NCBI GenBank assembly: GCA_963702725.1
Contig: CAVPDT010000001.1
Coordinates: forward strand, 41,803-105,802
Origin: an uncultured Solirubrobacterales bacterium
GTDB taxonomy: Bacteria; Actinomycetota; Thermoleophilia; Solirubrobacterales; Solirubrobacteraceae
Direction of reading: 5' to 3'
Length of the DNA: 64,000 bases
Positions 7,354 through 30,124 of the stretch are shown here, piece by piece; positions within the stretch are counted from its first letter, which is position 1; each line of letters opens with the position of its first letter. Both the position numbers and the translations under genes were made by a program. Under the pieces are notes generated by a model, which was not told the DNA's origin, did not search any database, and worked only from the letters and a program-made list of their open reading frames with translations.

Positions 7354-8145
7354 ATGAATCGGGCGTTCTTGCCGGCACGAGGCCTGATGGAGGAAGTGGG
7401 GGACATGATGATCCTCACCGCCAGGACGGTTTCCTCTGCCCTGTTGCCCCCGTATCCGTACGGTGAGGAGTTCGTGTCGCAGTTTCTGTTCGCGCTGCGG
7501 CTGTGCTGGCTGCCGCTGTTGATCTCCAGCGTGGCGATCAACTACGCCGTGCCCGGCATGCAGGCGGTGAACTTCTTTTCGCTCTTTGGCGCGCTGGACC
7601 GCGTCGGGGGCATTTTCGTGCTCGCCGCGCTGCGCGAACTCGGGCCGGCCGTGACCGCGATCGTGCTCGCGGGCGTCGCGGGCACGGCGATCACCGCTGA
7701 CCTCGGGGCGCGCAAGGTGCGCGAGGAGCTCGACGCGCTGCAGGTGCTGGGCGTGGACCCGATCAAGAATCTGGTCGTGCCGCGCTTTCTGGCGCTGATG
7801 CTCGCGACCGGTCTGTTCGACATCTACGCGGTCCTGTTCGGCATCTTCGGTGGTCTGCTCGCGGAGCTCGTCAACGGTCAGCCGCTGGGACCGTTTTGGA
7901 CGACTTTCTTCGCCAACGCGGACGTCACCGATCTGTGGGGGTCTGTACTGAAGACGCTGATCTACGGGGCGATCATCGCGATCGTGTGCTGCTACAAGGG
8001 CATGACCGCCTCCGGCGGCGCCGAGGGCGTGGGCAGGGCGGTTAATCAGGCGGTGGTGATCTCTTTTCTGGGCTTGGGCGCCTTCAACTACGCCTTCACG
8101 CAGATGCTGCTCGCCACGCATCCCCAGATCCTCGTCATCAAGTGA
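7354..8145 (+). CDS. MlaE/YrbE family ABC transporter permease
   Basis: RELGPAVTAIVLAG...ADLGARKVREELDALQVLGVDPI...PR; GGAEGVGRAVNQAVV. Confidence 0.9.
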   Translation: MNRAFLPARGLMEEVGDMMILTARTVSSALLPPYPYGEEFVSQFLFALRLCWLPLLISSVAINYAVPGMQAVNFFSLFGALDRVGGIFVLAALRELGPAVTAIVLAGVAGTAITADLGARKVREELDALQVLGVDPIKNLVVPRFLALMLATGLFDIYAVLFGIFGGLLAELVNGQPLGPFWTTFFANADVTDLWGSVLKTLIYGAIIAIVCCYKGMTASGGAEGVGRAVNQAVVISFLGLGAFNYAFTQMLLATHPQILVIK

Positions 8146-8213
8146 TCGCACCGGCAGGGCGCACCGACGGGATGAAAAGCCCGCGGGCGGAGCCACCCGC
8201 TACGCTGACCGCC

Positions 8214-10541
8214 ATGTCGAAGACCCTGCTGATAGCCGAGAAGCCCTCCGTGGGGCAGGACCTGGCGCGCGTGCTGAAGGGACCGTTCCAGAAGAAGGAG
8301 GGGTGGCTGGAGGGACCCGAGCACGTCGTTACGTGGGCGGTCGGCCATCTCGTGCAGCTGGCCGAGCCCGACGAGTACGACAAGAAGTTCAAGCGCTGGC
8401 GGATGGAGGATCTGCCGATCGTGCCCGAGAAGTTCAAGCTCGTGGTGCGCGACGAACGTTCGCGCAAACAGATGACGGTCGTGACCGCGCAGCTCGGGCG
8501 CGAGGACGTCGATCTGGTCGTCAACGCCTGCGATGCCGGGCGCGAGGGCGAGCTGATCTTCGCGTATCTGTATGAGAAGGCGAAAGGCAACAAGCCGATC
8601 AAACGGCTGTGGCTCAGCTCGATGACGAACGCGGCGATGAAAGCCGCGCTCGACTCGCTGCGCCCGGCCGAGGAATTGGCGTCGCTTGAGAAGGCGGCCC
8701 GCTCGCGTTCGGAGGCGGACTGGATCGTGGGCATGAACGCGACGCGCGCGGCGACGATCCGCCTGCGCAGCTCCTTTGACGGGGCGGTGTCGCTCGGACG
8801 GGTGCAGACCCCGACGCTTGCGATCGTCGCGCGCCGCGAGGAGGAAATCAAGGCGTTCAAACCCGAGCCCTACTGGTTGGTCGACGCGACGTTCGCCGCG
8901 GATCCGCTTGCCGACGCGGACGTCAACGGCGACGGCGAGGCGGGCGAGCGCGTCTATCGCGGTCGTTTTCACGCGGGCGCCAAGCCCCGGATCGCGAGTG
9001 AGGCCGAGGCGGTGGCGATCGTTGAGGCGTGCGAGGGCTCGACGGCGAGCATCACGAAGCTCGAGAAGAAAGAGCAGCGCGAGAAAGCGCCGATGCTGTA
9101 TGACCTGACGACGCTCCAGCGCGAGGCGAACACGCGCTACGGGTTCTCCGCGAAACGGACGCTGGCTGCGGCGCAGCGCTGCTACGAGGAGCACAAGGCG
9201 CTCACTTATCCCCGCACGAACTCGCGTTATCTGACCAAAGACATGGTCGCGGAGATCAAGCCCACGGCCGAGCTGGTGGGCTCGCACCCCGACTATAAAA
9301 AGGCCGCGGAGTACGTCACGAGCCTCGATCTGCTGCCGCTGGGACGGGTCGTGAACGACGCGAAGGTGACCGACCACCACGCGATCATCCCGACCAAGTC
9401 AGAGCACGACCTGGACCGGATGGGCTCGGATGACAGGCGCATCTACGACATGGTCACGCGGCGCTTTCTGGCGGTGTTCCACCCGGAGGCGGTGTTCGAG
9501 AACACGCGCGTGGAGACCACGATCCCCGCGGGCGAGGACGAGCGCGACGGCGGATACGTGTTCCGCACGCGCGGCAAGCTCTTGCTCGTGCCGGGCTGGC
9601 GCGGGGTCTACGACGAGGTCTCCGCGGCCGCCGGCGCGGCGAAAACGAGCGGCGGCGCGCGGGCCGAGGGCGAGGAGGACGAGGGCGCCGATCAGCAGCT
9701 GCCGAAGCTCGAGCAGGGCGAGAGCGTGCGCACGCGCGAGATCAAGAGCGCGCGCAAGGAAACGAAACCGCCGCGGCGCTACTCCGACGCGTCGCTGCTG
9801 GGCGCGATGGAGACCGCGGGCAAGCTCGTCGACGACGAGGAGATGCGCGAGGCGATGAAGGACTCGGGCATCGGCACGCCGGCGACGCGGGCGGCGATCA
9901 TCGAGCGGCTGATCACGGTCGGCTACATCGAACGCGACGGGCGTTCGCTGGTGGCCAGCGAGAAGGGCGTGAACGTGATCCGCCTCTTGAACGAGCACGC
10001 GCTGACCTCGCCCGGGCTGACCGGCGACTGGGAGAACCGCCTGGGCAAGATCGAGCGCGGGGAAGATTCGCGGGAGAAGTTCATGAGCGACATCGCGGGC
10101 TTCGCCAAAGAGACGATCGCGGAGCTCGACGAGAAGCTCAAGGACGTGCGCATACCCCGCGCGAACCTCGGTCCGTGCCCGGTGTGCGGGCACGAGATCA
10201 TGGAAAACCGCAAGGGCTATTCGTGCTGGGCGCGTAACGATCCGGGCTGCGGGTTCGTGATCTGGAAGGGGAAAGCCGGCAAGCAGCTGCCCGCGGAAGT
10301 CGCGCGCGAGCTGATCAAGACCGGCTACACCGCGCGGGCGATCACCGGGTTCAAAGGACGCAGCGGGCGCAGCTTCAAAGCGCACCTCGCACTCGAGCAG
10401 ACCGAGGAGGGCAAATGGCGGGTCGAGTTCGACGAGCCGTGGGCGAAGGCGGGCGCCAAGCCGCCGGACGCCGAGGTCGAGGCCCAGACGCCCGTGACCG
10501 CGCGGGCGGAGAGCGACATCGAGGCTCGCACTGCCGCTTAG
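8214..10541 (+). CDS. topB: type IA DNA topoisomerase (topoisomerase III-like)
   Basis: IAEKPSV TOPRIM, CDAGREGE, GRVQTPT, active-site LTYPRT, GIGTPATRAAII, C-terminal CPVC zinc/repeat domain; TACGCT -10 7 nt before ATG 8214. Confidence 0.92.
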   Translation: MSKTLLIAEKPSVGQDLARVLKGPFQKKEGWLEGPEHVVTWAVGHLVQLAEPDEYDKKFKRWRMEDLPIVPEKFKLVVRDERSRKQMTVVTAQLGREDVDLVVNACDAGREGELIFAYLYEKAKGNKPIKRLWLSSMTNAAMKAALDSLRPAEELASLEKAARSRSEADWIVGMNATRAATIRLRSSFDGAVSLGRVQTPTLAIVARREEEIKAFKPEPYWLVDATFAADPLADADVNGDGEAGERVYRGRFHAGAKPRIASEAEAVAIVEACEGSTASITKLEKKEQREKAPMLYDLTTLQREANTRYGFSAKRTLAAAQRCYEEHKALTYPRTNSRYLTKDMVAEIKPTAELVGSHPDYKKAAEYVTSLDLLPLGRVVNDAKVTDHHAIIPTKSEHDLDRMGSDDRRIYDMVTRRFLAVFHPEAVFENTRVETTIPAGEDERDGGYVFRTRGKLLLVPGWRGVYDEVSAAAGAAKTSGGARAEGEEDEGADQQLPKLEQGESVRTREIKSARKETKPPRRYSDASLLGAMETAGKLVDDEEMREAMKDSGIGTPATRAAIIERLITVGYIERDGRSLVASEKGVNVIRLLNEHALTSPGLTGDWENRLGKIERGEDSREKFMSDIAGFAKETIAELDEKLKDVRIPRANLGPCPVCGHEIMENRKGYSCWARNDPGCGFVIWKGKAGKQLPAEVARELIKTGYTARAITGFKGRSGRSFKAHLALEQTEEGKWRVEFDEPWAKAGAKPPDAEVEAQTPVTARAESDIEARTAA

Positions 10542-10553
10542 CAGGTTGACAGT

Positions 10554-11573
10554 TTGGGGAGGCACGCTTACGGCCGGTCGGTTCGACCACCCGTAGTGGC
10601 GCCGGCCACCGCACCTGACGGCGTATCGGGAGCGGCGCTCACAGCGCCGGGAACGGGCCCGGCGCCGTTGCGCGATGCACGCGTCCTCGACGAACTGCGC
10701 GCCAGGCCGTGGTCGGCGTCTTCGCTGGAGCTGTGGATCTCGTGCCCGGCGCGGTGGTTCGTCGAGCGGATGCTGCGCCCGGACAGTCCCGAGCCCGATC
10801 CCGAGCCCCTGACGCGCGGGGGGCTGGCGCACGCGGCGCTGCGCGACACGCTGGAGGGATTGCGCGAGCGCACCGGCTCGGCGCGGGTGACACAGGCGCG
10901 GCTGGGGCCGGCGCGCGAGCTGCTCGGCGAGGCCCTGGAGCGCCATGCGCATGAGTTCCCGCTGTCGGTGCGCGCGGAGCGCGTACCGAGCGCGCGCCGC
11001 CGGCTGGAGGCCGACCTGGAGCGCTATCTGGCGCACGCCGCGGCCCAGGACAGTCCGCTCGAGCCCATGTGGCTGGAGGCGGGTTTCGGGTTCGACGGCG
11101 AGGAGGGCGCTCTGCCGGCATTCGATCTCGGCGACGGGGTGCTGTTGCGCGGGCGGATCGATCGCATCGACGTCCTGCCGGGGGGAGAGGCGGCGGTCGT
11201 CTACGACTACAAGGGCGCGCGCGTCACGCCCGGCGCTCGCTGGATCGAGGACGGCAAGATCCAGCTCGCGCTGTACATGCGCGCCGCCGAACGACTCCTC
11301 GGCCTGCGCGTGGTCGGAGGGCTGTATCAGCCGCTGGGCGGCGTCGATCTGCGCGCCCGGGGGGTCCTCGACGCGGCGGCGGGCGTGGGGGTGGAGTGCG
11401 TGCGCACGGACCTGCTGGAAGGGACCGAGATCGAGGAGCTCGTGCAGGAGGCCGTCGAAGTGGCGCGCGCGGCCGCGGCGCAGGCGGTGGCGGGAAAGAT
11501 CGAGGCACGGCCGCTGACTTGCGCGTTCACGGGCGGGTGTTCGCACCCGTCGATCTGCCGTTCAGGGCGCTGA
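10554..11573 (+). CDS. PD-(D/E)XK nuclease, AddB C-terminal-domain-like (start uncertain: 10554 TTG or 10596 GTG)
   Basis: SASSLE..CP..W, GRIDRID, DYK, QLALY, C-terminal C-x5-C-x5-C (Fe-S staple-like Cys set). Confidence 0.8.
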   Translation: MGRHAYGRSVRPPVVAPATAPDGVSGAALTAPGTGPAPLRDARVLDELRARPWSASSLELWISCPARWFVERMLRPDSPEPDPEPLTRGGLAHAALRDTLEGLRERTGSARVTQARLGPARELLGEALERHAHEFPLSVRAERVPSARRRLEADLERYLAHAAAQDSPLEPMWLEAGFGFDGEEGALPAFDLGDGVLLRGRIDRIDVLPGGEAAVVYDYKGARVTPGARWIEDGKIQLALYMRAAERLLGLRVVGGLYQPLGGVDLRARGVLDAAAGVGVECVRTDLLEGTEIEELVQEAVEVARAAAAQAVAGKIEARPLTCAFTGGCSHPSICRSGR

Positions 11574-11575
11574 GC

Positions 11576-14200
11576 GTGGAGCGGTTGACCGGATGGGAGC
11601 TCGTCGATCCCGAAGCCGGGAGCGCGAGCGGTCCGGAGCGGGCGGGCGAGCCCGAGCCCGCGACCGCCACGGTGGCGCCGAGCAGGCTGACGGCAGAGCA
11701 GGAGCAGGCGGTGGCGCGGCGCGGCGAGCCGCTGCTGCTGGCGGCGGGCGCCGGGAGTGGCAAGACCTCGGTGCTGGTCGAGCGGTTCGTGCGGGGCGTG
11801 CGCGAGGACGGGATCGCGCCCGAGCGGATCCTGGCGATCACGTTCACCGAGCGCGCCGCGGGCGAGCTGCGCGAGCGGGTGCGCGCGCGGCTGCTGGGAC
11901 TCGGTGAGACGGGCGCGGCGCGCGCTCTCGACGGCGCGTTCGTCGGCACCTTCCACGGGTTCTGCGCGCGGATCCTGCGCGCGCACGCGCGCGAGGCCGG
12001 CCTGGGGGAGGGGCCTCACGAGATCCTGGACGAGGGGCTCGCGGGACGGCTGCGCCGCCGCGCGTTCGCCGGTGCGCTCGGCGAGTTCGTCGGCGACGGG
12101 AATCGCGGCGAGGCGGTCGATCTGATCGCCGCATATACCGCCGATCGGGCGCGCGCGATTGTGTTGGGGGTCTACGCCGAGCTGCGCAGTCATGGGCAGC
12201 GCTCACCGCGGCTGCCCGCGCCCCGGCCCGGGCGCGCGCCTGTCGGACAGGCCGAGCTGTCGGCGGCGGCGGAGTTGGACGAAAAGAGCAGGCTGCAAGC
12301 ACGGGCCGTGGAGGAGACGGGCGCCCGTGCGATCGCGCTGTGGGACGAGCTGCTGAGGCGCTTCGGGGAGCGCTACGAGGCCGCCAAGCGGGCCCGCGAG
12401 GGCGTTGACTTCGACGATCTCGAGCTGCTGGCGGGCGAGCTTCTGAAAGGCGACGAGCGGATCCGCGGGAGCTGGTCGGAGCGGTTCGAGCTGCTGATGG
12501 TGGACGAGTTGCAGGACGTCAATCCTCGCCAGCTTCAGCTGGTGAGCATGCTGGAGCGCGAGAACCTGTTCACGGTCGGCGACGAGTGGCAGTCGATCTA
12601 CGGGTTCCGTCACGCCGACGTCGGTCTGTTCAGGGATCGCGACGCGCGCTTGGCGCCGCGCGGGCAGAGCCTGCGGCTGGCGCACAACTTTCGCGGCAGG
12701 CCGCAGCTGCTTCAGGCCGTGAACGCGGTGTTCGCACGGCGATTCGGCGAGACCTACATACCTTTGCGCGCAGGACGCGAGCGCGACCGCGAGTCCTCGG
12801 CGCGGCGCGAACCGCATCTCGAGCTGCTGCTCACGGATCGCCGTGGCTGGAGCGGCGCGGGGGCTCGGCTCGCGGAGCTCGGCGGGGTGCGAGGCACGGG
12901 CGCGGCGGACTGGCGCCAGGCGGAGGCGCTCGCGCTGGCGCGGCGCGTGCGGGAGCTGATCGAGGATGGGCGCACGCGGGCGGGTCAGGTGGCGGTGCTG
13001 CTGCGGGGCATGGGCGATATCGACTGCTACGAGCAGGCGCTGCGCGCGCAGGGTCTGCGCACGCTCGCGAGCGCCGGGTCGTTCTGGGCGCGCCAGGAGG
13101 TGGCCGATTTGCTCGCGTACCTGCGCGCGCTGGCCGATCCCGGCGACGAGTTGGCGCTGTATGGCGCGCTGGCCGCGCCGCCGGTGGGATTGTCCAGCGA
13201 CACGCTGGCGCTGCTGGCGCGCGCGGCGCGGGAGCGGGAGTGCGGCGTGTGGGAGGTGGTCCGCCGGCCCGAGGTCCGCGCCGCACAGGGGGCCGGCGCC
13301 GCAGGCCCCCTGACGGACGCTGAGCGCGAGCGTGCCGGCGCGTATTGCGCATGGCTTGAGGCCGAGCGTGAGCTGGTGGACGAACGCACGCTCGCAGAGC
13401 TGCTGGAGCGGGCGATCGAGCATGGCGCTGACACGGCGCGAGTGCGCGCGGACGCGGACGAACCGCGTAGGCTCGCGAACGTGCGCAAGCTGATCGGGCT
13501 GGCGGGAGAGTGGGAACGCAGCGAAGGCCACGACCTGCGCGGGTTCCTGGACGAGGCCGCCTTCCAACAGGGCGCGGGCGGCATGGGCTTTCTCGCGAGC
13601 GCCGACACGTCCGCCGAGCCCGACGCGCCCGGCGATGACCAGGCGCAAGTCGAGGCTGTGCGGCTGATGAGCGTGCATGGGGCCAAGGGGTTGGAGTTCG
13701 ACGTGGTGTGCGTGGCCGATCTCGGTCGTGCGCCGAGCGTCGGCGTGCCCGACCTGCTCGTCGAGGGCGATCGCGTGGGGGTGCGACTGCTCGAGCTCGC
13801 CGATCCCGAACCGCGCCCGGCGCTTGACTATGCGCAGCTGGCCGAGGAGCGTCGCGAAGCTCAGGCCTCCGAGGAGGATCGGATCGTGTACGTCGCGATG
13901 ACTCGCGCGCGCGAGCGGCTGCTGCTGAGTGGGGCGGTGGACTTCGCCGCGTGGCCGCGCGAGCGCCCGGGCGCGCCGCCGATCGCGTGGCTGGGGCCGG
14001 CGCTCGCGCCCGAGCTGCCCGCGCTGTGCGCGCAGGCCGTCCGAGGGCACGGCTCCGAGGATGCTCGACCGCCTGTGGACCCGGTCGATCTCCCGGGCCG
14101 GGATCGCGCGAGGAGGGATCGACCGGCGCCCGCGCTGAGCGTCGACGGAACCGACGTGCCGATGCGCTGTCGCCTGAACACTCCGATGGCGGCCCCATGA
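11576..14200 (+). CDS. UvrD/AddA-like SF1A helicase lacking a C-terminal nuclease domain
   Basis: AGAGSGKT, ITFT, GTFHGF, DFDDL, VDELQD, VGDEWQSIYGFR, SVHGAKGLEF, YVAMTRARE; GTG 11576 just after the nuclease stop. Confidence 0.88.
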   Translation: MERLTGWELVDPEAGSASGPERAGEPEPATATVAPSRLTAEQEQAVARRGEPLLLAAGAGSGKTSVLVERFVRGVREDGIAPERILAITFTERAAGELRERVRARLLGLGETGAARALDGAFVGTFHGFCARILRAHAREAGLGEGPHEILDEGLAGRLRRRAFAGALGEFVGDGNRGEAVDLIAAYTADRARAIVLGVYAELRSHGQRSPRLPAPRPGRAPVGQAELSAAAELDEKSRLQARAVEETGARAIALWDELLRRFGERYEAAKRAREGVDFDDLELLAGELLKGDERIRGSWSERFELLMVDELQDVNPRQLQLVSMLERENLFTVGDEWQSIYGFRHADVGLFRDRDARLAPRGQSLRLAHNFRGRPQLLQAVNAVFARRFGETYIPLRAGRERDRESSARREPHLELLLTDRRGWSGAGARLAELGGVRGTGAADWRQAEALALARRVRELIEDGRTRAGQVAVLLRGMGDIDCYEQALRAQGLRTLASAGSFWARQEVADLLAYLRALADPGDELALYGALAAPPVGLSSDTLALLARAARERECGVWEVVRRPEVRAAQGAGAAGPLTDAERERAGAYCAWLEAERELVDERTLAELLERAIEHGADTARVRADADEPRRLANVRKLIGLAGEWERSEGHDLRGFLDEAAFQQGAGGMGFLASADTSAEPDAPGDDQAQVEAVRLMSVHGAKGLEFDVVCVADLGRAPSVGVPDLLVEGDRVGVRLLELADPEPRPALDYAQLAEERREAQASEEDRIVYVAMTRARERLLLSGAVDFAAWPRERPGAPPIAWLGPALAPELPALCAQAVRGHGSEDARPPVDPVDLPGRDRARRDRPAPALSVDGTDVPMRCRLNTPMAAP

Positions 14201-14976
14201 GCCACGCCTCGCCTTCGGACGGCGAGCTGTTCGCCCGGGCGCGTGCGGGCGAGACGCGCGCGCGCGAGGAGCTCATCGAGCGCTACCTGCCGCTGGCGCG
14301 GCGGCTGGCGCGTCGCTACCAGCGCAGCGAGGAGCCGCTCGAGGATCTGATGCAGGTCGCCTCGTTGGGGCTTTTGAAGGCGGTGGACCGCTATGACACG
14401 AGCCGAGAGACGGCGTTTTCGAGCTTCGCGGTGCCGACGATCCTGGGCGAGCTGCGCCGCCATTTTCGCGATCGCACCTGGTCGGTGCGGGTCCCGCGCG
14501 AGCTCCAGGAGTTGGCGCTGGGAGTGGACAAGACCGCGACGGCGCTCTCCACCGAGCACGGCCGCGCCCCGACGGTCGCCGAGATAGCCTCCTCGATGGA
14601 AGTCAGCGAAGAGCGGGTGCTGGAGGCGCTGCAGGCCGCCGGCGCCTATCGCGCGGGATCGCTGGACGCCCCGCGCGCGGGGGGCGGGGAGGACTCCTCT
14701 TCGGGGGAAAGCGTGGGCGATGCGATCGGCGCGCGGGAGGACGGGTTCGAACGCGCCGAGGAGCGTGCGACGCTGGGACCTATGTTCGCCAAGATCACCG
14801 AGCGCGAGCGGTTGGTGCTGACGCTGCGCTTCGCCGAGGATTTGACCCAGGGGGAGATCGGCGAGCGGATCGGCGTCTCGCAGATGCAGGTCTCGCGGCT
14901 GATTCGTCAGGCGCTCGCGCGGTTGCGAGAGACCCTGAAACAGGACCCTGCCCGGGAGGATCCGCCCACGGGTTGA
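14197..14976 (+). CDS. SigB/SigF/SigG-family RNA polymerase sigma factor
   Basis: EDLMQVASLGLLKAVDRYD, FSSFAVPTILGELRRHFRD, SQMQVSRL; ATGA overlap with the helicase stop. Confidence 0.93.
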   Translation: MSHASPSDGELFARARAGETRAREELIERYLPLARRLARRYQRSEEPLEDLMQVASLGLLKAVDRYDTSRETAFSSFAVPTILGELRRHFRDRTWSVRVPRELQELALGVDKTATALSTEHGRAPTVAEIASSMEVSEERVLEALQAAGAYRAGSLDAPRAGGGEDSSSGESVGDAIGAREDGFERAEERATLGPMFAKITERERLVLTLRFAEDLTQGEIGERIGVSQMQVSRLIRQALARLRETLKQDPAREDPPTG

Positions 14977-15001
14977 CATCGGCGGGCCTACGTCCGACAC
15001 T
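14973..15001 (+). promoter_or_regulatory. candidate sigma70-type promoter for leaderless ku
   Basis: TTGACA (14973-14978) - 17 bp - GACACT (14996-15001), 6 nt before ATG 15008. Confidence 0.45.
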
Positions 15002-15007
15002 GTGCCG

Positions 15008-15913
15008 ATGCCCCGATCGATGTGGATGGGCACGCTCAACTTCGGCCTTGTGAGCATGCCCGTGAAGCTGTACAGCGCCGTCACGAACAAGAGCGTGCAC
15101 TTCAACCAGCTGCACGGCGCCGATCACGCGCGCATCCAGCAGAAGCGCGTTTGCTCGGCCGACGGCGAGGAGGTGCCGTTCGAGGAGATCGTCAAGGGCT
15201 ACGAACTGGCGCCCGAACGGTACGTGGTGATCGAGGACGCAGAGCTTGCGGCGCTCGCGCCGGAGGCCACGCGCACGATCGAGATCGAGGACTTCGTGCA
15301 GATCGAGGAGATCGACCGGATCTACTTCGACCAGCCCTACTACGTGGTCCCCAACCGCGGTGGCTCGCGCTCCTACAGGCTGCTGTTGCAGGCGATGCGC
15401 GAAACCGGCAAGGTCGCGATCGCGCGGGTGGTGCTGCGCTCGCGCGAGCGCCTCGTCGCGGTGCACCCGCGCGAGGACGTGCTGATGATGACCACGCTGA
15501 CCTACGCCGACGAGGTCAACCCGGCGAGCGAGCTGCGCGAGCTGGGCGGCGAGGAGGAGTCGGCCGCCGTGGGCGAGCGCGAGCTCGACGTGGCCAAGCG
15601 ACTGGTGGAGTCGCTGGCCGAGCCGTTTGACATCGGTCGTTATCGCGACACCTACCGCGAGGCCGTGCTCGACCTGATCGACCGTAAGGCCGGTGGCGAG
15701 GAAATCGTCGTGCAGCCGCGCCCTGCGGTGGAGGCGCTGCAGTCCCCGGATCTGATGGGGGCTTTGCAGGCGAGCCTGGAGCGTGCGCGCGAGCGCGACG
15801 GTGGCGGCGTGGCGCCCAACGGCAAAGCCGGGGCTCCCAAGAAGTCCTCCGCGAAGAAGGCGCCGGCGAAGAAAGCTCCGGGCAAGCCCGCCACGAAGGC
15901 CAAGACCGGCTGA
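15008..15913 (+). CDS. ku: Ku protein (NHEJ)
   Basis: MPRSMWMGTLNFGLVSMPVKLYSA, IVKGYE, YFDQPYY, Lys/Ala/Pro-rich C-tail. Confidence 0.95.
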   Translation: MPRSMWMGTLNFGLVSMPVKLYSAVTNKSVHFNQLHGADHARIQQKRVCSADGEEVPFEEIVKGYELAPERYVVIEDAELAALAPEATRTIEIEDFVQIEEIDRIYFDQPYYVVPNRGGSRSYRLLLQAMRETGKVAIARVVLRSRERLVAVHPREDVLMMTTLTYADEVNPASELRELGGEEESAAVGERELDVAKRLVESLAEPFDIGRYRDTYREAVLDLIDRKAGGEEIVVQPRPAVEALQSPDLMGALQASLERARERDGGGVAPNGKAGAPKKSSAKKAPAKKAPGKPATKAKTG

Positions 15914-23692: not shown

Positions 23693-23782
23693 ATGCCTGT
23701 TCACAAGGTCTCCATTTCCCTGGATGAGCCCGTGCTTCTGGCTGCTCGTGAGGTCGCCAAGCGCCGTCTCGGATCGCGGTAG
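23693..23782 (+). pseudogene. truncated ribbon-helix-helix (CopG-like) antitoxin, 29 aa
   Basis: MPVHKVSISLDEPVLLAAREVAKRRLGSR*: RHH strand (KVSISLD) plus helix A, stopping where the repeat array begins. Confidence 0.6.
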
Positions 23783-23849
23783 GTCATTGACTCGGATTGC
23801 GGAAGGAAAAGGTCTCGAATTGCGGAGAGTTTTGCCCTCGGATTGCGGA
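23768..23849 (+). repeat. four direct repeats CTCGGATTGCGGA at an exact 23-bp period
   Basis: Copies start at 23768 (2 mismatches), 23791, 23814 (1 mismatch), 23837; 10-bp unique spacers. Confidence 0.9.
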
Positions 23850-23869
23850 GAATGCCATATAGTGGGGGG

Positions 23870-25144
23870 ATGTCAGCGGTTCTGAGCGAGATCGTCGAGC
23901 GCCGGCTCGGCGAGGTGGTGGACCGGCGGATGCACGACGAGCCCGTGATCGTGCTGCAGGGTCCGCGGGCGGTGGGGAAGTCCACGCTGCTGCGGGAGCT
24001 GGCGCGCGTACGAGAACGGGAGGTCATCGACCTCGACGATCTGGGCGCCCGCGAGGCGGTGCGTGCCGACCCGGCGCTGTTTGTGCGTGGTGCGGCCCCC
24101 GTGTTGATCGACGAGTTCCAGCACGTGCCCGAGCTGCTCGACGCGATCAAGGCCGAGCTCAACCGCGACGGCGCCCCGGGACGGTTCGTGCTCACCGGCT
24201 CGACGCGGTATACGACGCTGCCGGCGGCTGCGCAGGCGCTTACTGGTCGCGCCCATCGTGTCGATGTCCTACCTCTTTCCCAGGGAGAGATCGCGGGAGT
24301 GCGTGAGGACTTTGCCGAGATGCTCCTGAGCGAACCATCCTCGCTGGTGGAGTCGAGCCCGCCCGAGACTGCGCGCGAGGAGTACCTGAGCCGGGTCGTC
24401 GCGGGTGGCTTCCCGATGGCGTTGTCCCGTGCGCGGCCGGCCGATCGCGCGCGCTGGTTCGACGACTACCTGGAGCTGGTCCTCGAGCGCGACGTTCTGG
24501 AGCTCTCGCGCGTGCACCAGCGCCGGCAGCTGCCGCTCCTGTTGCGCCGCCTGGCCGGGCAGACCGCACAGGTGCTCAACATCGCAGACGCGGCGAGGGC
24601 GATCGGCATGGAGAAGTCCACCGCCGAGAGCTATACGAAGCTGCTGGAGACCGTTTTCCTCGTCTATCGACTGCCGGCATGGGGCACGACGCTTGGCCCG
24701 CGCGTCGGCGCGGCGCCCAAGGTTCATGTCGTGGACAGCGGGCTTGCTGCGCGCCTGTTGCGTTTGACCGAGCCCAAGCTCGGGGCGGCCACCGCGCCCG
24801 CGCTCACCGAGTTCGGGCATCTGCTGGAGACGTTCGTCGTGGGGGAGGTATGCAAGCAGCTCGACTGGCTCGACGCCCCCGTCGCACGGGGGCACTGGCG
24901 CACCCACGACGGGGATGAGGTCGACCTGGTCATCGAGCGCGAAGACGGCGCGCTCGTCGCGGTGGAGGTCAAGGCCGCTTCGCGCGTTACTGCCCGCGAG
25001 CTGCGCTCTCTGTTGAAGTTGCGAGCCAAGCTGGGAAGTCAGTTCGTGGGGGGCGTGGTGCTCTACACCGGCGCGCGCGCATATACACACGAAGGGATTC
25101 AGATCCTGCCGATCAGCCGGCTCTGGCGAGTCGGGCGCCGCTGA
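23870..25144 (+). CDS. AAA_14 ATPase + DUF4143 (restriction-endonuclease-like) protein
   Basis: QGPRAVGKST, LIDEFQ, FVLTGS, C-terminal HWRTHDGDEVDLVIE...AVEVKA; TATAGT -10 6 nt before ATG. Confidence 0.9.
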   Translation: MSAVLSEIVERRLGEVVDRRMHDEPVIVLQGPRAVGKSTLLRELARVREREVIDLDDLGAREAVRADPALFVRGAAPVLIDEFQHVPELLDAIKAELNRDGAPGRFVLTGSTRYTTLPAAAQALTGRAHRVDVLPLSQGEIAGVREDFAEMLLSEPSSLVESSPPETAREEYLSRVVAGGFPMALSRARPADRARWFDDYLELVLERDVLELSRVHQRRQLPLLLRRLAGQTAQVLNIADAARAIGMEKSTAESYTKLLETVFLVYRLPAWGTTLGPRVGAAPKVHVVDSGLAARLLRLTEPKLGAATAPALTEFGHLLETFVVGEVCKQLDWLDAPVARGHWRTHDGDEVDLVIEREDGALVAVEVKAASRVTARELRSLLKLRAKLGSQFVGGVVLYTGARAYTHEGIQILPISRLWRVGRR

Positions 25145-26934: not shown

Positions 26935-28389
26935 ATGGCACTCTCGGATGAGCAGATCTTCGCTCAGAATCCATGGTGGACGAGCGTTGCCTGGCGAGCG
27001 TCAGATCCACACCTGGCGCTGCTCGAGGCACATCCGATGCGCCTCGCCGCGGACTTCGCCTCCGGACTGGACCTGAACGCTCCCGGTGTTCACATCCTGC
27101 GCGGACCGCGCCAGGTCGGCAAGAGCACCGATCTGAAGCTGCTCGTCGAGCGCGCGCTCGCCGCCGGCCTGCAGCCGAGGGCCGTCGTATACCTCGCACT
27201 CGACCTGCTCGAGGGCCGGCATCTCTCGGAGCTGGCCACGACCGTACGGCGCGCGCTTGATCTCGCCGGGGGTGACCGCGCCGAGGCTCCAGGCCTCCTG
27301 CTGCTCGACGAGGTGACCGCCGTAAATGGTTGGCAGACCGCCGTCAAGTCGCTGTGGGACGACGGCACGATACGCGGGGAGGTCGTCGTCTGCACGGGAT
27401 CTTCGGCGATCGATCTCCAGCACGGGGCCGTCGAGCGGTTGCCGGGGCGGCGGCAGGCGGGCGTCGATCACCTCGCTCTGCCGCAGGGTTTTGCCGGCTT
27501 CGCTCGCGCCGTCACCGGCGACATCCCGCCGTCCCCACGACTGACCGTCGCCGACCTGTGTGGACCGGATGGCCAGGCGCTCATCCGCGACATGCGCGCG
27601 TATGCGCCGGCGCTCGAAGCGGCGCTCGAGCGATACCTGCGCTTCGGCGGGCTGCCCGCCGCCGTCGCCGAGGCGGCATCCGGAGCCCGCGAGCCCTCGC
27701 GGGAGGTCAAGCGGATCCTGTACGACTCGCTCGTAAGAGAGCCGCAGCGCAGAGGCGCGAGTATCCCCGCCGGCCACGCGCTCCTGGAGCGAGTGGTGCG
27801 CTCCCTCGGGTCGAAGATCAGCTGGAGCAGCATGGCTCGAGAGATGGACGTTCCGCTCGGACGTGGCACGGGACGGCCGAGTCACCAGACCCTGCGTGAC
27901 TACATCGAGCTGCTGGCCGGCGGTTACTTCCTGTTCGTGACCTACTTCTGGCGAGCCGGCTCGCACGCCAACGAGCAGTCCCGGGACAAGAAGGTCTTCC
28001 TCGCCGACCCGCTGCTGCACACGGTCGCCCTCGACGGGGCGCCCGGACTTCCGTTCGACATGCCCGCGCTCGTCGAGAGCACAGTCGGGATGGCTCTGCT
28101 GCGACGCTACGAGCCGGCCGATCGCCTGCTCGAGACGTTCATCCTGCCCGAGCGCCTGCACATCTGGCAGACAGCACGCGGTGGAGAGATCGACTTCGTC
28201 TGCGGTCCGCGCCGCGAACTCGACGTCGTGGAGGTCAAGTACCGCGAGAACCCGAGCCTCGCGGCGGCCGCGGCCGCCGCGAGAGCACATCCGGGACGCC
28301 CGATCGCGATGATCACCAAAAGCACGTTTCAAGTCGCCGAGCGATACGTCCTCCTGCCTGCGCACACGCTCCTCTGGGCACTCGGCTAA
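26935..28389 (+). CDS. second AAA_14 ATPase + DUF4143-like nuclease protein
   Basis: QNPWW N-terminus, RGPRQVGKST, LLDEVT, VCTGSS, KKVFLADP, GEIDFV...VVEVKY. Confidence 0.88.
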   Translation: MALSDEQIFAQNPWWTSVAWRASDPHLALLEAHPMRLAADFASGLDLNAPGVHILRGPRQVGKSTDLKLLVERALAAGLQPRAVVYLALDLLEGRHLSELATTVRRALDLAGGDRAEAPGLLLLDEVTAVNGWQTAVKSLWDDGTIRGEVVVCTGSSAIDLQHGAVERLPGRRQAGVDHLALPQGFAGFARAVTGDIPPSPRLTVADLCGPDGQALIRDMRAYAPALEAALERYLRFGGLPAAVAEAASGAREPSREVKRILYDSLVREPQRRGASIPAGHALLERVVRSLGSKISWSSMAREMDVPLGRGTGRPSHQTLRDYIELLAGGYFLFVTYFWRAGSHANEQSRDKKVFLADPLLHTVALDGAPGLPFDMPALVESTVGMALLRRYEPADRLLETFILPERLHIWQTARGGEIDFVCGPRRELDVVEVKYRENPSLAAAAAAARAHPGRPIAMITKSTFQVAERYVLLPAHTLLWALG

Positions 28390-28408
28390 GGGCTATGGAA
28401 AGCGCGAA

Positions 28409-28470
28409 TCTCCAGAGACATCGCGCCGGTGCCCGCGTCTCCAGAGACATCGCGCCGGTGCCCGCGTCTC
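28409..28470. repeat. 29-bp perfect tandem duplication
   Basis: TCCAGAGACATCGCGCCGGTGCCCGCGTC at 28411-28439 and 28440-28468. Confidence 0.95.
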
Positions 28471-28506
28471 GCCCGGCGGCCTTCTTCTACGCTGTTTCCC
28501 ACAGCC

Positions 28507-29568
28507 ATGCCCACCTTCTGCCGGCACAACCGCTTCATCGATCGCTGCCCCATCTGCAGCAAGACCCTGCCCGGCGCCGAGCCGGTGACCGGCGTCGGCA
28601 AGCGACGGTCCTCGCGCGGCGCAACCAGCGCGTCCTCGCCCTTGCGCGGCGCCTCGGCCGCCGCGCGCCAGCGTCGCCTGCGCGCCGGTGGACGCGAAGT
28701 GCGCGTCCACCGCGAGACGCGCGCCCAAGAGGACGGCTACGAGCACCCGCTCATCCCCGGTCTGCGCTCCTCGCAGGACGCCGCACGGCTGGCCGAGGAG
28801 ATCGCTTTCGCGTCCGGTCGCCTGCTGCGCATGCACGCCGCGCCGCCCGGCTTCCTCAACGAGATTCGCGCCCTCGCGGGCGACGGTCAGCTGGAGCGCG
28901 CCACCTGGCTGTGCTTCCTCGCCGTCTACCTCTCGCCGCTGCAAGGCGAGGACCCGTTTGCCGGCGTGCGCCTCGTGCTGGAGCGCGAGGGCGACGGCAG
29001 CGGGTCCGAGGACGCCGCGCAGCGCGAAGGCTCCCCGCTCGACGGCGTCCCGCTCGGACCGCGCACCTCCCACGATCCCGCGCGCGGATCGGAGACCGTG
29101 CACGCCTACCGTCAATGGGCGTCGCACGCCGGCTCCCAAGTGGAGGGGCTCCTCGGCGAGGCGTCCTGGACACCCCAGCGGCGCTTCGAGCGGGCGTTCG
29201 AGCGCCTGGCCCTGCCCGGCTTCCCACGCATGGGCCGCTACGAGCTGCTCGTCACCCTCGGACGGCTCGGCCTGTACGAGATGCAGGCCGACTCGCTGCA
29301 CCTCGCCGTCGGACGCGCCGGCCTGCAGGACCCGACGACGATCGCCGCCAAGCGCATACTCGCCGTCGGCGACCCCATCTACCTCGAGCGCCGCGCGTCC
29401 GCGTTCGCGCAGGCGCTCGCCGTGCCGATCGACGTACTCGACCTCGCCTTCGCCAACTGGGGCACAGGCGAGCGCGCGACCCTCGGCTTCAAGCCCGACG
29501 TCACCGACCGCCACGCGCGCCAGCGCGTCCGCGAAGCGTTCGACCTGGGCCCTCCGAGCGCCGACTGA
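28507..29568 (+). CDS. hypothetical protein; N-terminal Cys/His motif, C-terminal similarity to aGPT-pyrophosphorylase clade 3 (HhH-GPD-like fold)
   Basis: CRHNRFIDRCPIC; ATWLCFL...FERAFERL..PGFPRMGRYELLVTLGRLGL...VLDLAFANW. Confidence 0.6.
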   Translation: MPTFCRHNRFIDRCPICSKTLPGAEPVTGVGKRRSSRGATSASSPLRGASAAARQRRLRAGGREVRVHRETRAQEDGYEHPLIPGLRSSQDAARLAEEIAFASGRLLRMHAAPPGFLNEIRALAGDGQLERATWLCFLAVYLSPLQGEDPFAGVRLVLEREGDGSGSEDAAQREGSPLDGVPLGPRTSHDPARGSETVHAYRQWASHAGSQVEGLLGEASWTPQRRFERAFERLALPGFPRMGRYELLVTLGRLGLYEMQADSLHLAVGRAGLQDPTTIAAKRILAVGDPIYLERRASAFAQALAVPIDVLDLAFANWGTGERATLGFKPDVTDRHARQRVREAFDLGPPSAD

Positions 29569-29668: not shown

Positions 29669-30124
29669 ATGGCGCTGTGCTTCATCGAGCCGCAGGACGC
29701 AATCCGCGTGATCGCCGAGTCCGTCGGGCGGGAGGCCCGCCGCCAGCTCGTGGGCGAGGTCGTACGCGCCTGGGTCGACGACATCCCCGACCAGGAGCTC
29801 TCAGTCCACTACGCCCGCGCGATCGCCGATCTCGACCAGGACGACCTGCACCTGCTCGCCGCCTGGCACGCCTCGCTCGAGGTCGGCCAGCCGATCCCCA
29901 ACACCGACTTCCTCGTCGGCGTGTTCGGAAGCCTCGGCGACAACCGCCGCGAGGCCCTGAAGATCGCCGCCGGCTTCCGCGGCGAGGAAGCCTTCCAGGC
30001 CGGCGTCTCCGAGGAGCAGGCCCTGGACACCGTGCTCCCCTGCCTCTCCCGCGAGCGGGCGATCGAGCTCGCGCACGAGTGCATCCAGCTGTACGCCTGG
30101 GATCGGTTGGGTTCGGATAACTGA
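29669..30124 (+). CDS. hypothetical protein (151 aa)
   Basis: TACAGT -10 7 nt before ATG 29669; host-like codon usage; acidic, helical. Confidence 0.7.
   Translation: MALCFIEPQDAIRVIAESVGREARRQLVGEVVRAWVDDIPDQELSVHYARAIADLDQDDLHLLAAWHASLEVGQPIPNTDFLVGVFGSLGDNRREALKIAAGFRGEEAFQAGVSEEQALDTVLPCLSRERAIELAHECIQLYAWDRLGSDN

Follow-up and report, generated by a model that had tools for sequence, protein, structure and literature searches.

A cysteine-less relative of clade 3 aGPT-Pplase proteins, fused to a putative zinc knuckle, in the conserved chromosome of Solirubrobacterales

We analyzed a stretch of 64,000 nucleotides from an uncultured Solirubrobacterales bacterium (assembly GCA_963702725.1, contig CAVPDT010000001.1, positions 41,803 to 105,802). 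The whole stretch is called the window below, and coordinates are those of the window unless stated otherwise. The subject is the gene at 28507-29568, whose product an earlier note had likened to clade 3 of the alpha-glutamyl/putrescinyl-thymine pyrophosphorylase (aGPT-Pplase) family. The gene is real, strongly conserved and chromosomal in soil Solirubrobacterales. This kind of protein is known, because Pfam already captures the aGPT-Pplase family and some JGI records bear its name. What is new is a subfamily without the catalytic cysteine that is fused to a putative zinc knuckle, is fixed in synteny across one order and has no hypermodification partners nearby. In the searchable literature, whose coverage leaves out the 2013 paper that defined the clades, we found no description of these features.

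The gene and its parts

The gene, its leader and the parts of its product are as follows.

28475..28506, + strand: conserved leader of 32 nt directly 5' of the ATG, near-identical in related loci L001, L004-L007 and L017
28507..29568, + strand: complete gene of a 353-residue putative zinc-finger/aGPT-Pplase3-like protein, stop codon at 29566-29568 (open reading frame list, homolog starts, Pfam PF18746, more than 2,554 homologs)
28507..28572, + strand: CHCC knuckle, residues 1-22 (MPTFCRHNRFIDRCPICSKTLP), predicted ligands C5, H7, C14 and C17 (ligand conservation, model)
28573..28701, + strand: basic linker rich in Arg, Gly and Ser, residues 23-65, variable in length and sequence (isoelectric point, pI; predicted local distance difference test, pLDDT; gap-rich alignments)
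28702..28770, + strand: extended arm, residues 66-88, with invariant D76-G77-Y78 and P84-G85 (invariant columns, model)
28771..29565, + strand: all-alpha domain containing a helix-hairpin-helix (HhH), residues 89-353 (fourteen helices, hhalign with clade 3, Foldseek)
28984..29046, + strand: acidic insert rich in Gly, Asp and Glu, about residues 160-180, between helices, variable (alignments, pI, model)
29173..29265, + strand: helix-hairpin-helix, residues 223-253 (DSSP on the model, alignment to canonical F-G-R-x-A-R-F-D-Y-L, invariance)
29437..29460, + strand: degenerate catalytic motif L311-D312-L-A-F-A316-N317-W318 (hhalign columns against canonical (I/L)-E-D-x-x-C-N-W)

In the six-frame list of open reading frames (ORFs), a 379-codon ORF on the + strand (28429-29568) encloses the gene. 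We take the ATG at 28507 as the true start, which gives 353 residues, because all homologs begin with MPTFCRHNRF. The GC content at third codon positions is 0.89, a typical coding value in a window of about 70% GC.

Residue conservation was assessed in 88 orthologs, i.e., the window protein and those of 87 related loci (designated by L numbers), with identities of 38-87%. The motifs that the earlier note had quoted are all present: C5-x-H7-x6-C14-x2-C17, the basic linker, W134-L-C-F-L138, F227-x3-F231-x2-L234, G238-F-P-R-M-G-R-Y-E-L-L-V-T-L-G-R-L-G255 and L311-D-L-A-F-A-N-W318. This is far more than chance would give. The four finger ligands and 11 further residues (D76, G77, R226, F227, R241, R244, D275, K282, R283, R296 and W318) are each found in 88/88 orthologs.

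The finger persists as F-C-[RP]-H-x-R-x5-C-x-[IV]-C in distant representatives with about 35-40% identity. It has the four Cys/His ligands, two knuckles (C-P-x-C included) and compact fold of a zinc knuckle; in the model it is a hairpin followed by a short helix (pLDDT 89-92). Given the C-P-x-C pattern and the predicted hairpin, zinc is most likely the metal bound. No named family covers the knuckle: a Pfam search with the N-terminal 70 residues returned only a sub-threshold match to DUF6093.

If the knuckle bound an iron-sulfur (Fe-S) cluster instead of zinc, the protein would be a DNA-scanning factor that responds to redox state. This alternative concerns the knuckle metal only and is compatible with the reading of the whole protein given below. 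The H-x6-C-x2-C spacing coincides with the first three ligands of the EndoIII/MutY cluster loop (C-x6-C-x2-C-x5-C), and a DUF59 gene for Fe-S assembly and a suf operon lie downstream. However, C-P-x-C with a predicted hairpin and short helix is typical of zinc knuckles, the motif is N-terminal, with a disordered linker between it and the domain, and the adjacency to DUF59 is broken in L019, L028, L057, L092 and L093. We therefore give the cluster little credence.

The linker has a pI of 12.0, and its residues 31-55 are disordered in the model (pLDDT <50). The arm has no regular secondary structure, although it is modelled with a pLDDT of 93-98. The acidic insert (pI 4.05, pLDDT 64-79) is missing (0 residues) in some homologs and exceeds 60 residues in others. 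In a search with a 40-sequence profile, residues 6-75 (28507-28730) gave a non-significant match (E 5.4) to the eukaryotic ribosomal protein eL37, where the resemblance consists of RHN…C..C followed by a basic tail. We treated this match to the finger and linker as chance; it is probably compositional, with an RNA-binding N-terminus as the alternative.

The family is small and has a narrow distribution. A profile search of 1.84 billion representatives gave only 502 clusters at 50% identity, 159 of them under E 1e-30, and in one-genome-per-species contigs a relative is encoded by at least 522 species. The best 80 matches all belong to Solirubrobacterales, Solirubrobacteraceae or Thermoleophilia metagenome-assembled genomes, many of them on Mb-sized chromosomes. 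When the neighbouring genes of the window were compared by tblastn with 83 related loci, the following gene order proved to be conserved: GltB/GltD, FMO-like, the gene at 28507-29568, a 151-residue gene, DUF59 (FeS_assembly_P), WS/DGAT (opposite strand), IspH and a metallophosphoesterase. The gene occurs as a single copy, has been inherited vertically within the order and lies in conserved chromosomal synteny; it is not an island gene. A search of sequencing runs returned soil and rhizosphere DNA metagenomes only, which contained about 10% of the words, and no RNA runs.

The leader stands out against other intergenic DNA, which has diverged between the loci listed for it. It contains the hexamer TACGCT, of a -10-like TAnnnT type, at 28488-28493, and a promoter-type function of the leader appears plausible. 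A scan for promoters (sigma-70 consensus) and terminators gave no match, and neither did an Rfam scan of the whole window. In many other orthologs (L016, L018-L023, L026, L033, L036 and L045) the word TAGACT or TAAACT lies 5-9 nt 5' of the GTG or ATG start, which suggests that the gene has its own promoter there, with short-leader or leaderless transcripts. In another clade (L002, L009-L014 and L052) a GTG start overlaps the end of the FMO gene.

Homology to clade 3 and the predicted fold

The likeness to clade 3 proposed in the earlier note proved to be correct. Pfam PF18746 (aGPT-Pplase3) matches the protein with 38.9 bits (E 8.9e-10), which exceeds the cutoff of 25, but only over model positions 140-269 of 279; a precomputed PF18746 match is present in all 120 homologs listed. 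Homology extends further in profile comparisons. The window-family profile (A2, 40 sequences) and a canonical clade 3 profile (A5, 20 members) align by hhalign with 98.4% probability and E 6e-15 over 229 columns, with residues 79-322 corresponding to canonical positions 29-309; against a single canonical protein the probability is 95.2%. Because of the profile-profile result, homology to canonical clade 3 over the whole domain is secure. The canonical protein used for comparison, WP_223995421.1 from a plasmid of Arthrobacter sp. NicSoilB11, scores 291 bits against PF18746 over its full length. A tblastn search of plasmids with the window protein found one weak match, which is the canonical clade 3 gene on the Arthrobacter plasmid, and a search of 50,697 phage records found none.

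Common to the window protein and canonical clade 3 are P-G-[IL], E-A-x-W-L-x-F, Y-x-x-W and F-x-R-x-x-R-[FY]-[DE]-x-L, as well as an acidic residue and the N-W pair of E-D-x-x-C-N-W. In contrast to canonical proteins, the window protein has additional parts, namely the knuckle, the basic linker, the D-D-G-Y arm and the acidic insert. The two groups also differ in distribution: the window subfamily is vertical in one order, whereas canonical clade 3 is patchy, found on plasmids and in diverse taxa.

The relationship to clade 2 is more distant. As clade 2 comparators we considered M6 gp51, ViI gp247, PaMx11 gp46 (PUGT, PDB 8Z2M) and the 15599 DADT. A sub-threshold Pfam match to ADDT (PF18724, 17.9 bits against a cutoff of 26.2) and the best viral structural match described below place the window protein in the same superfamily as these amino-acid:DNA and diamine DNA transferases. 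However, hhalign of the window-family profile with PUGT found no similarity (probability 0.3%), and with the canonical clade 3 profile only the 15-residue catalytic motif of PUGT was aligned (E 0.059). The clade 2 genes are phage-borne, while the gene studied here is cellular and chromosomal.

Other searches gave no assignment. There was no match for the gene in NCBIfam, PADLOC or PHROGs, none to Pfam HhH-GPD at E up to 1 and none in a PDB sequence search with the protein alone; the PDB search with the 40-sequence profile returned only eL37.

An AlphaFold2 model built on A2 has a pLDDT of 88.3 and a predicted template modelling (TM) score of 0.79. It comprises fourteen helices across residues 89-344. 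The HhH element consists of a helix (223-233), the hairpin L-P-G-F-P-R-M and a second helix (241-253), and R226, F227, R241 and R244 are its invariant residues. Clade 2 transferases are likewise all-alpha, HhH-containing and DNA-glycosylase-like (PMC8989533, PMC13458397).

Among predicted viral structures (BFVD), the first Foldseek match is an "amino acid:DNA transferase domain" protein of Mycobacterium phage LilMcDreamy (E 1.4e-3, probability 1.0, TM 0.40/0.47). It is followed by two matches with probabilities of 0.98-1.0 and then by a haloviral endonuclease III; the TM values of the top matches are 0.40-0.53. In the PDB, AGOG/Ogg2-type 8-oxoguanine glycosylases are the best structural neighbours, namely Pab-AGOG (7OUE), Tm1821 of T. 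maritima (3N0U), 7P8L and M. jannaschii Ogg (MjOgg, 3KNT). The profile and structure searches that the earlier note had called for have thus returned the aGPT-Pplase3 profile, phage amino-acid:DNA transferases and AGOG/Ogg2 glycosylases, in agreement with its proposal. A possible point of likeness to AGOG/Ogg2 is the HhH-like element, which in most close orthologs has an Asp 18 residues past the basic residue of its second helix. Unlike AGOG/Ogg2, the window protein has a hairpin longer than LPGVG, and its invariant K282 lies outside the HhH.

The remodelled active site and its possible function

The transferases of clade 2 cannot do without a Cys, which acts as the nucleophile, or without a Glu that precedes it by four residues, and a Glu/Thr pair together with an N-terminal Asp binds the divalent metal that they require; Cys, Glu and Thr are all essential in the Pplase2 enzymes (PMC8989533, PMC11472151, PMC13458397). 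The corresponding motifs align as follows.

PaMx11 gp46 (PUGT): E243-T244-I-L-C247-K-W, within EVETILC247KW
Canonical clade 3: invariant E299-D300-x-x-C303-N-W-Q-K, aligned to the PUGT motif
Window protein: D312-L313-A-F-A316-N317-W318

The catalytic cysteine (C303 in canonical proteins, C247 in PUGT) aligns with A316. At this position the 88 orthologs have A (71), Y (8), W (4), S (3), F (1) or L (1), and Cys in none. The second metal ligand (canonical D300, PUGT T244) is replaced by Leu313. Most of the invariant polar residues of canonical proteins are replaced in the window subfamily as well: H-F-G-K reads Y-L-S-P in the window protein, F-G-N-H-R-K-Y reads L-G-P-R-T-S-H, T-G-P reads Q-D-P, and the Q-K after N-W is lost in favour of N-W-G-T. 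However, the residues beside the lost cysteine are kept, namely D312 (the acid four residues before the Cys position; 87/88), N317 (85/88) and W318. The subfamily also has an invariant polar set of its own: D76, D275, K282, R283 and R296. Our reading of these columns is that the pocket has probably been remodelled and is still under selection rather than decaying.

Partner genes of thymine hypermodification were looked for in the neighbourhood. A Pfam survey found no 5-hydroxymethyluracil (5-hmU) DNA kinase, thymidylate synthase/hydroxymethylase or TET/JBP gene among the likely genes of the 64-kb window, and none of the syntenic neighbours examined in relatives is of these types. The earlier note had stated that the window holds no kinase partner, which this survey bears out and extends to thymidylate synthase. 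With the cysteine and the partner genes lost, the protein probably handles DNA differently from its known relatives.

Since the catalytic Cys and most canonical polar invariants are gone, the known transferase chemistry is unlikely. The earlier note had proposed a "DNA-modifying or modified-base-recognising" enzyme. The first half of this proposal is unlikely to hold for modification by the known chemistry, while recognition of a modified base, or another activity that involves base flipping, is plausible.

On balance, we regard the protein as probably a cysteine-less, domesticated offshoot of clade 3, i.e., a stand-alone DNA-binding and base-flipping protein (a repair glycosylase or a reader) and not a thymine hypermodifier, although our confidence in this is moderate. 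The knuckle and the basic tether would hold the protein on DNA, and the retained pocket, which D312, N317 and W318 frame, would still receive a base flipped by the HhH domain. The Cys-dependent Michael addition at C6/C5 of 5-phosphomethyl-deoxyuridine would no longer be possible, which would leave either glycosylase chemistry of a hydrolytic or lyase type, in which D275/K282 or D312 could be the catalytic residues, or non-catalytic recognition of a damaged or modified pyrimidine. We slightly favour the enzymatic version as the more probable of the two because so many polar residues are invariant.

Several points weigh against this reading. We know of no biochemically characterised member of clade 3 or of the window subfamily. 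The globular domain as a whole has an acidic pI of 5.6. D262, which has the canonical HhH-GPD Asp spacing (18 after R244), is found in 79/88 orthologs but is lost in distant members, so the Asp is not family-wide. Partner genes could lie in parts of the genome beyond the 64-kb window. C136, the one further Cys that is frequent (81/88 orthologs), could in principle be a relocated nucleophile. The glycosylase matches in the PDB are weak (E 0.2-1.6, TM 0.3-0.5, probability up to 0.87, target-normalised TM 0.45-0.49), and the solved transferase 8Z2M is outside the top 50 PDB matches of Foldseek. The TM values are at about the level of those between solved Pplase2 enzymes and HhH glycosylases, 0.5-0.6 (PMC13458397).

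If C136 or another residue did serve as nucleophile, or if displacement were direct, the protein might be a still-active enzyme of the amino-acid:DNA-transferase type that marks the cell's own DNA, with kinase and hydroxymethylase partners encoded elsewhere. Its homology to the transferase family, the retention of D312 (the equivalent of the essential Glu) and of the N-W pair, the occurrence of C136 within W-L-C-F-L and the purifying selection on many polar residues all agree with such an activity. We nevertheless consider it quite unlikely. Besides the missing Cys, the replaced metal ligand and the canonical motifs that are not kept, C136 lies in a helix, is Val in canonical proteins and is A, G, S or L in distant members; moreover, in the relatives examined, genes for a 5-hmU DNA kinase, a thymidylate-synthase-like protein or TET/JBP are absent beside the gene.

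The loss of the canonical active site could also mean that the protein is a dead pseudo-enzyme, purely a DNA-binding or regulatory scaffold that flips no base. The finger and the basic tether could provide DNA binding alone, and the product of the adjacent gene, a 151-residue acidic protein (hyp151, described below), might take part. In favour of such a partnership, hyp151 is the next gene in 80/80 genome loci as well as in L001-L002 (L003 does not reach that far). However, the adjacency is lost in L084, L092 and L093, a sigma-factor gene intervenes in L086, and the near-complete conservation of D312, N317, W318 and further polar residues speaks against a pure scaffold. We find this explanation rather unlikely, though less so than a surviving transferase.

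A bolder reading is that an enzyme of DNA hypermodification from a mobile element was domesticated throughout the order into a housekeeping gene with new chemistry, targeted to DNA by a novel CHCC zinc knuckle, either that of an HhH glycosylase/lyase with a D275/K282-type dyad or that of a Cys-independent base transferase. We regard this as unlikely. If true, the former would represent a previously unknown class of HhH DNA glycosylases/lyases, and the latter would imply a so-far undetected mark on Solirubrobacterales chromosomes.

To our knowledge, the only known role of aGPT-Pplase/AADT enzymes is in phages, which use them to hypermodify thymine. In the window subfamily the fold has become a fixed part of the conserved chromosome in an abundant order of soil bacteria, having lost the cysteine and the partners and gained the knuckle and the tether, and the subfamily can be regarded as a natural experiment in the repurposing of a DNA-modifying enzyme. 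The protein is likewise a specific candidate for a new activity in DNA repair or base reading, in an actinobacterial lineage that has been little studied. In practice, the automatic annotation "thymine pyrophosphorylase" is probably wrong as to function for thousands of database entries.

Neighbouring genes and the question of defence

The genes of the window to which the text below refers are the following.

8142-10541: topoisomerase (Topoisom_bac/Toprim)
10554-11573: PD-(D/E)XK nuclease
11069-14200: ORF of a UvrD-like helicase, overlapping the nuclease ORF
13951-14976: sigma-70 family gene
15002-15913: Ku
23843-25144, + strand: AAA_14 + DUF4143 ATPase gene 1, PADLOC candidate PDC-S01
26935-28389, + strand: AAA_14 + DUF4143 ATPase gene 2, PADLOC candidate PDC-S01
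29669-30124, + strand: hyp151, a hypothetical gene of 151 residues directly downstream of the gene studied

The two ATPase genes flank the FMO gene within the otherwise conserved housekeeping order. Both match PDC-S01 (E 1.5e-148 and 1.2e-24), and their C-termini have weak matches to YraN/UPF0102-like nuclease folds. The earlier note had spoken of two adjoining candidate defence nucleases; the label is reasonable because of the PDC-S01 matches, but the neighbourhood is incidental. At essentially all of the 83 related loci no ATPase gene lies between the FMO gene and the gene at 28507-29568. The sole exception, L008, has a 28%-identical ATPase on the opposite strand. The ATPases are insertions specific to the window genome and behave like single-gene cassettes.

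These data bear on the possibility that the gene is a component of an anti-phage defence island acting together with the two ATPase-nuclease genes. Besides the PADLOC matches of both neighbours, it is relevant that predictions have placed aGPT-Pplase domains in candidate defence systems (PMC13092281). However, the gene itself has no PADLOC or PHROG match and stands in fixed housekeeping synteny on Mb-sized chromosomes. Since the ATPases are missing from the loci of the relatives, we rejected the linkage; it is essentially refuted, and we attach next to no probability to it.

Canonical clade 3 genes have neighbours of another kind. In 3/3 loci examined, which come from unrelated taxa, a gene of the thymidylate synthase family lies upstream and a Peptidase_M78/ImmA gene lies convergently downstream; neither has a counterpart beside the window gene. 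The thymidylate-synthase-family gene is long and either overlaps the transferase gene or stands before it. The modules, in coordinates of their own loci, are the following.

L089, 5761-8783: canonical module of Arthrobacter (conjugative plasmid)
L090, 4063-7030, and L091, 3173-7022: canonical modules of the other taxa, a Microbacterium oleivorans chromosome and an Ignavibacteriae contig

In the Microbacterium locus, NUDIX genes and an SRA-ScoMcrA gene are found near the module. Judged by its gene content, the canonical clade 3 module looks like a mobile module of base modification or defence.

The rest of the window has an ordinary housekeeping content according to Pfam: PBP, topoisomerase, PD-(D/E)XK nuclease, UvrD-like helicase, Ku, a sigma factor, GltBD, ThiF/ThiS/JAB, hydantoinases, HU, a PfkB kinase and a SUF-like iron-sulfur cluster. 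The SUF-like cluster was assigned by synteny with L002 and one Rrf2 match, most of its ORFs being outside the Pfam survey. A cluster of genes for DNA transactions occupies 8142-15913, 13-20 kb upstream of the gene, with GltBD between them. The true start of the helicase is probably downstream of the ORF start because the ORF overlaps that of the nuclease.

The product of hyp151 is acidic (pI 4.5) and all-helical; its AlphaFold model is poor (pLDDT 50.9). It has no match in Pfam, NCBIfam, PDB, PADLOC or PHROG, and its approximately 3,261 clusters at 90% identity are all named "hypothetical". Across Solirubrobacterales loci it is 85-99% identical, compared with 78-92% for IspH and 50-87% for the gene at 28507-29568, and it is still 71% identical in the distant L086. 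By these identities, hyp151 appears to be an extraordinarily constrained lineage-specific protein. The pair is intact even where later synteny is inverted or interrupted. Functional coupling was nevertheless downgraded because of the lost or interrupted adjacency in distant members: the adjacency reflects lineage synteny and gives at most weak support to a functional link.

Repeats were noted at the edges of the ATPase cassettes. A 29-nt tandem unit (TCTCCAGAGACATCGCGCCGGTGCCCGCG) is present in two copies at 28402-28459, 3' of ATPase gene 2 and 5' of the conserved leader. A 23-nt tandem unit (…CTCGGATTGCGGA…) occurs three times at 23766-23849, just 5' of ATPase gene 1, and the word TCTCCAGA lies just 5' of the start of ATPase gene 2 at 26935. 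These repeats may be recombination or operator sites.

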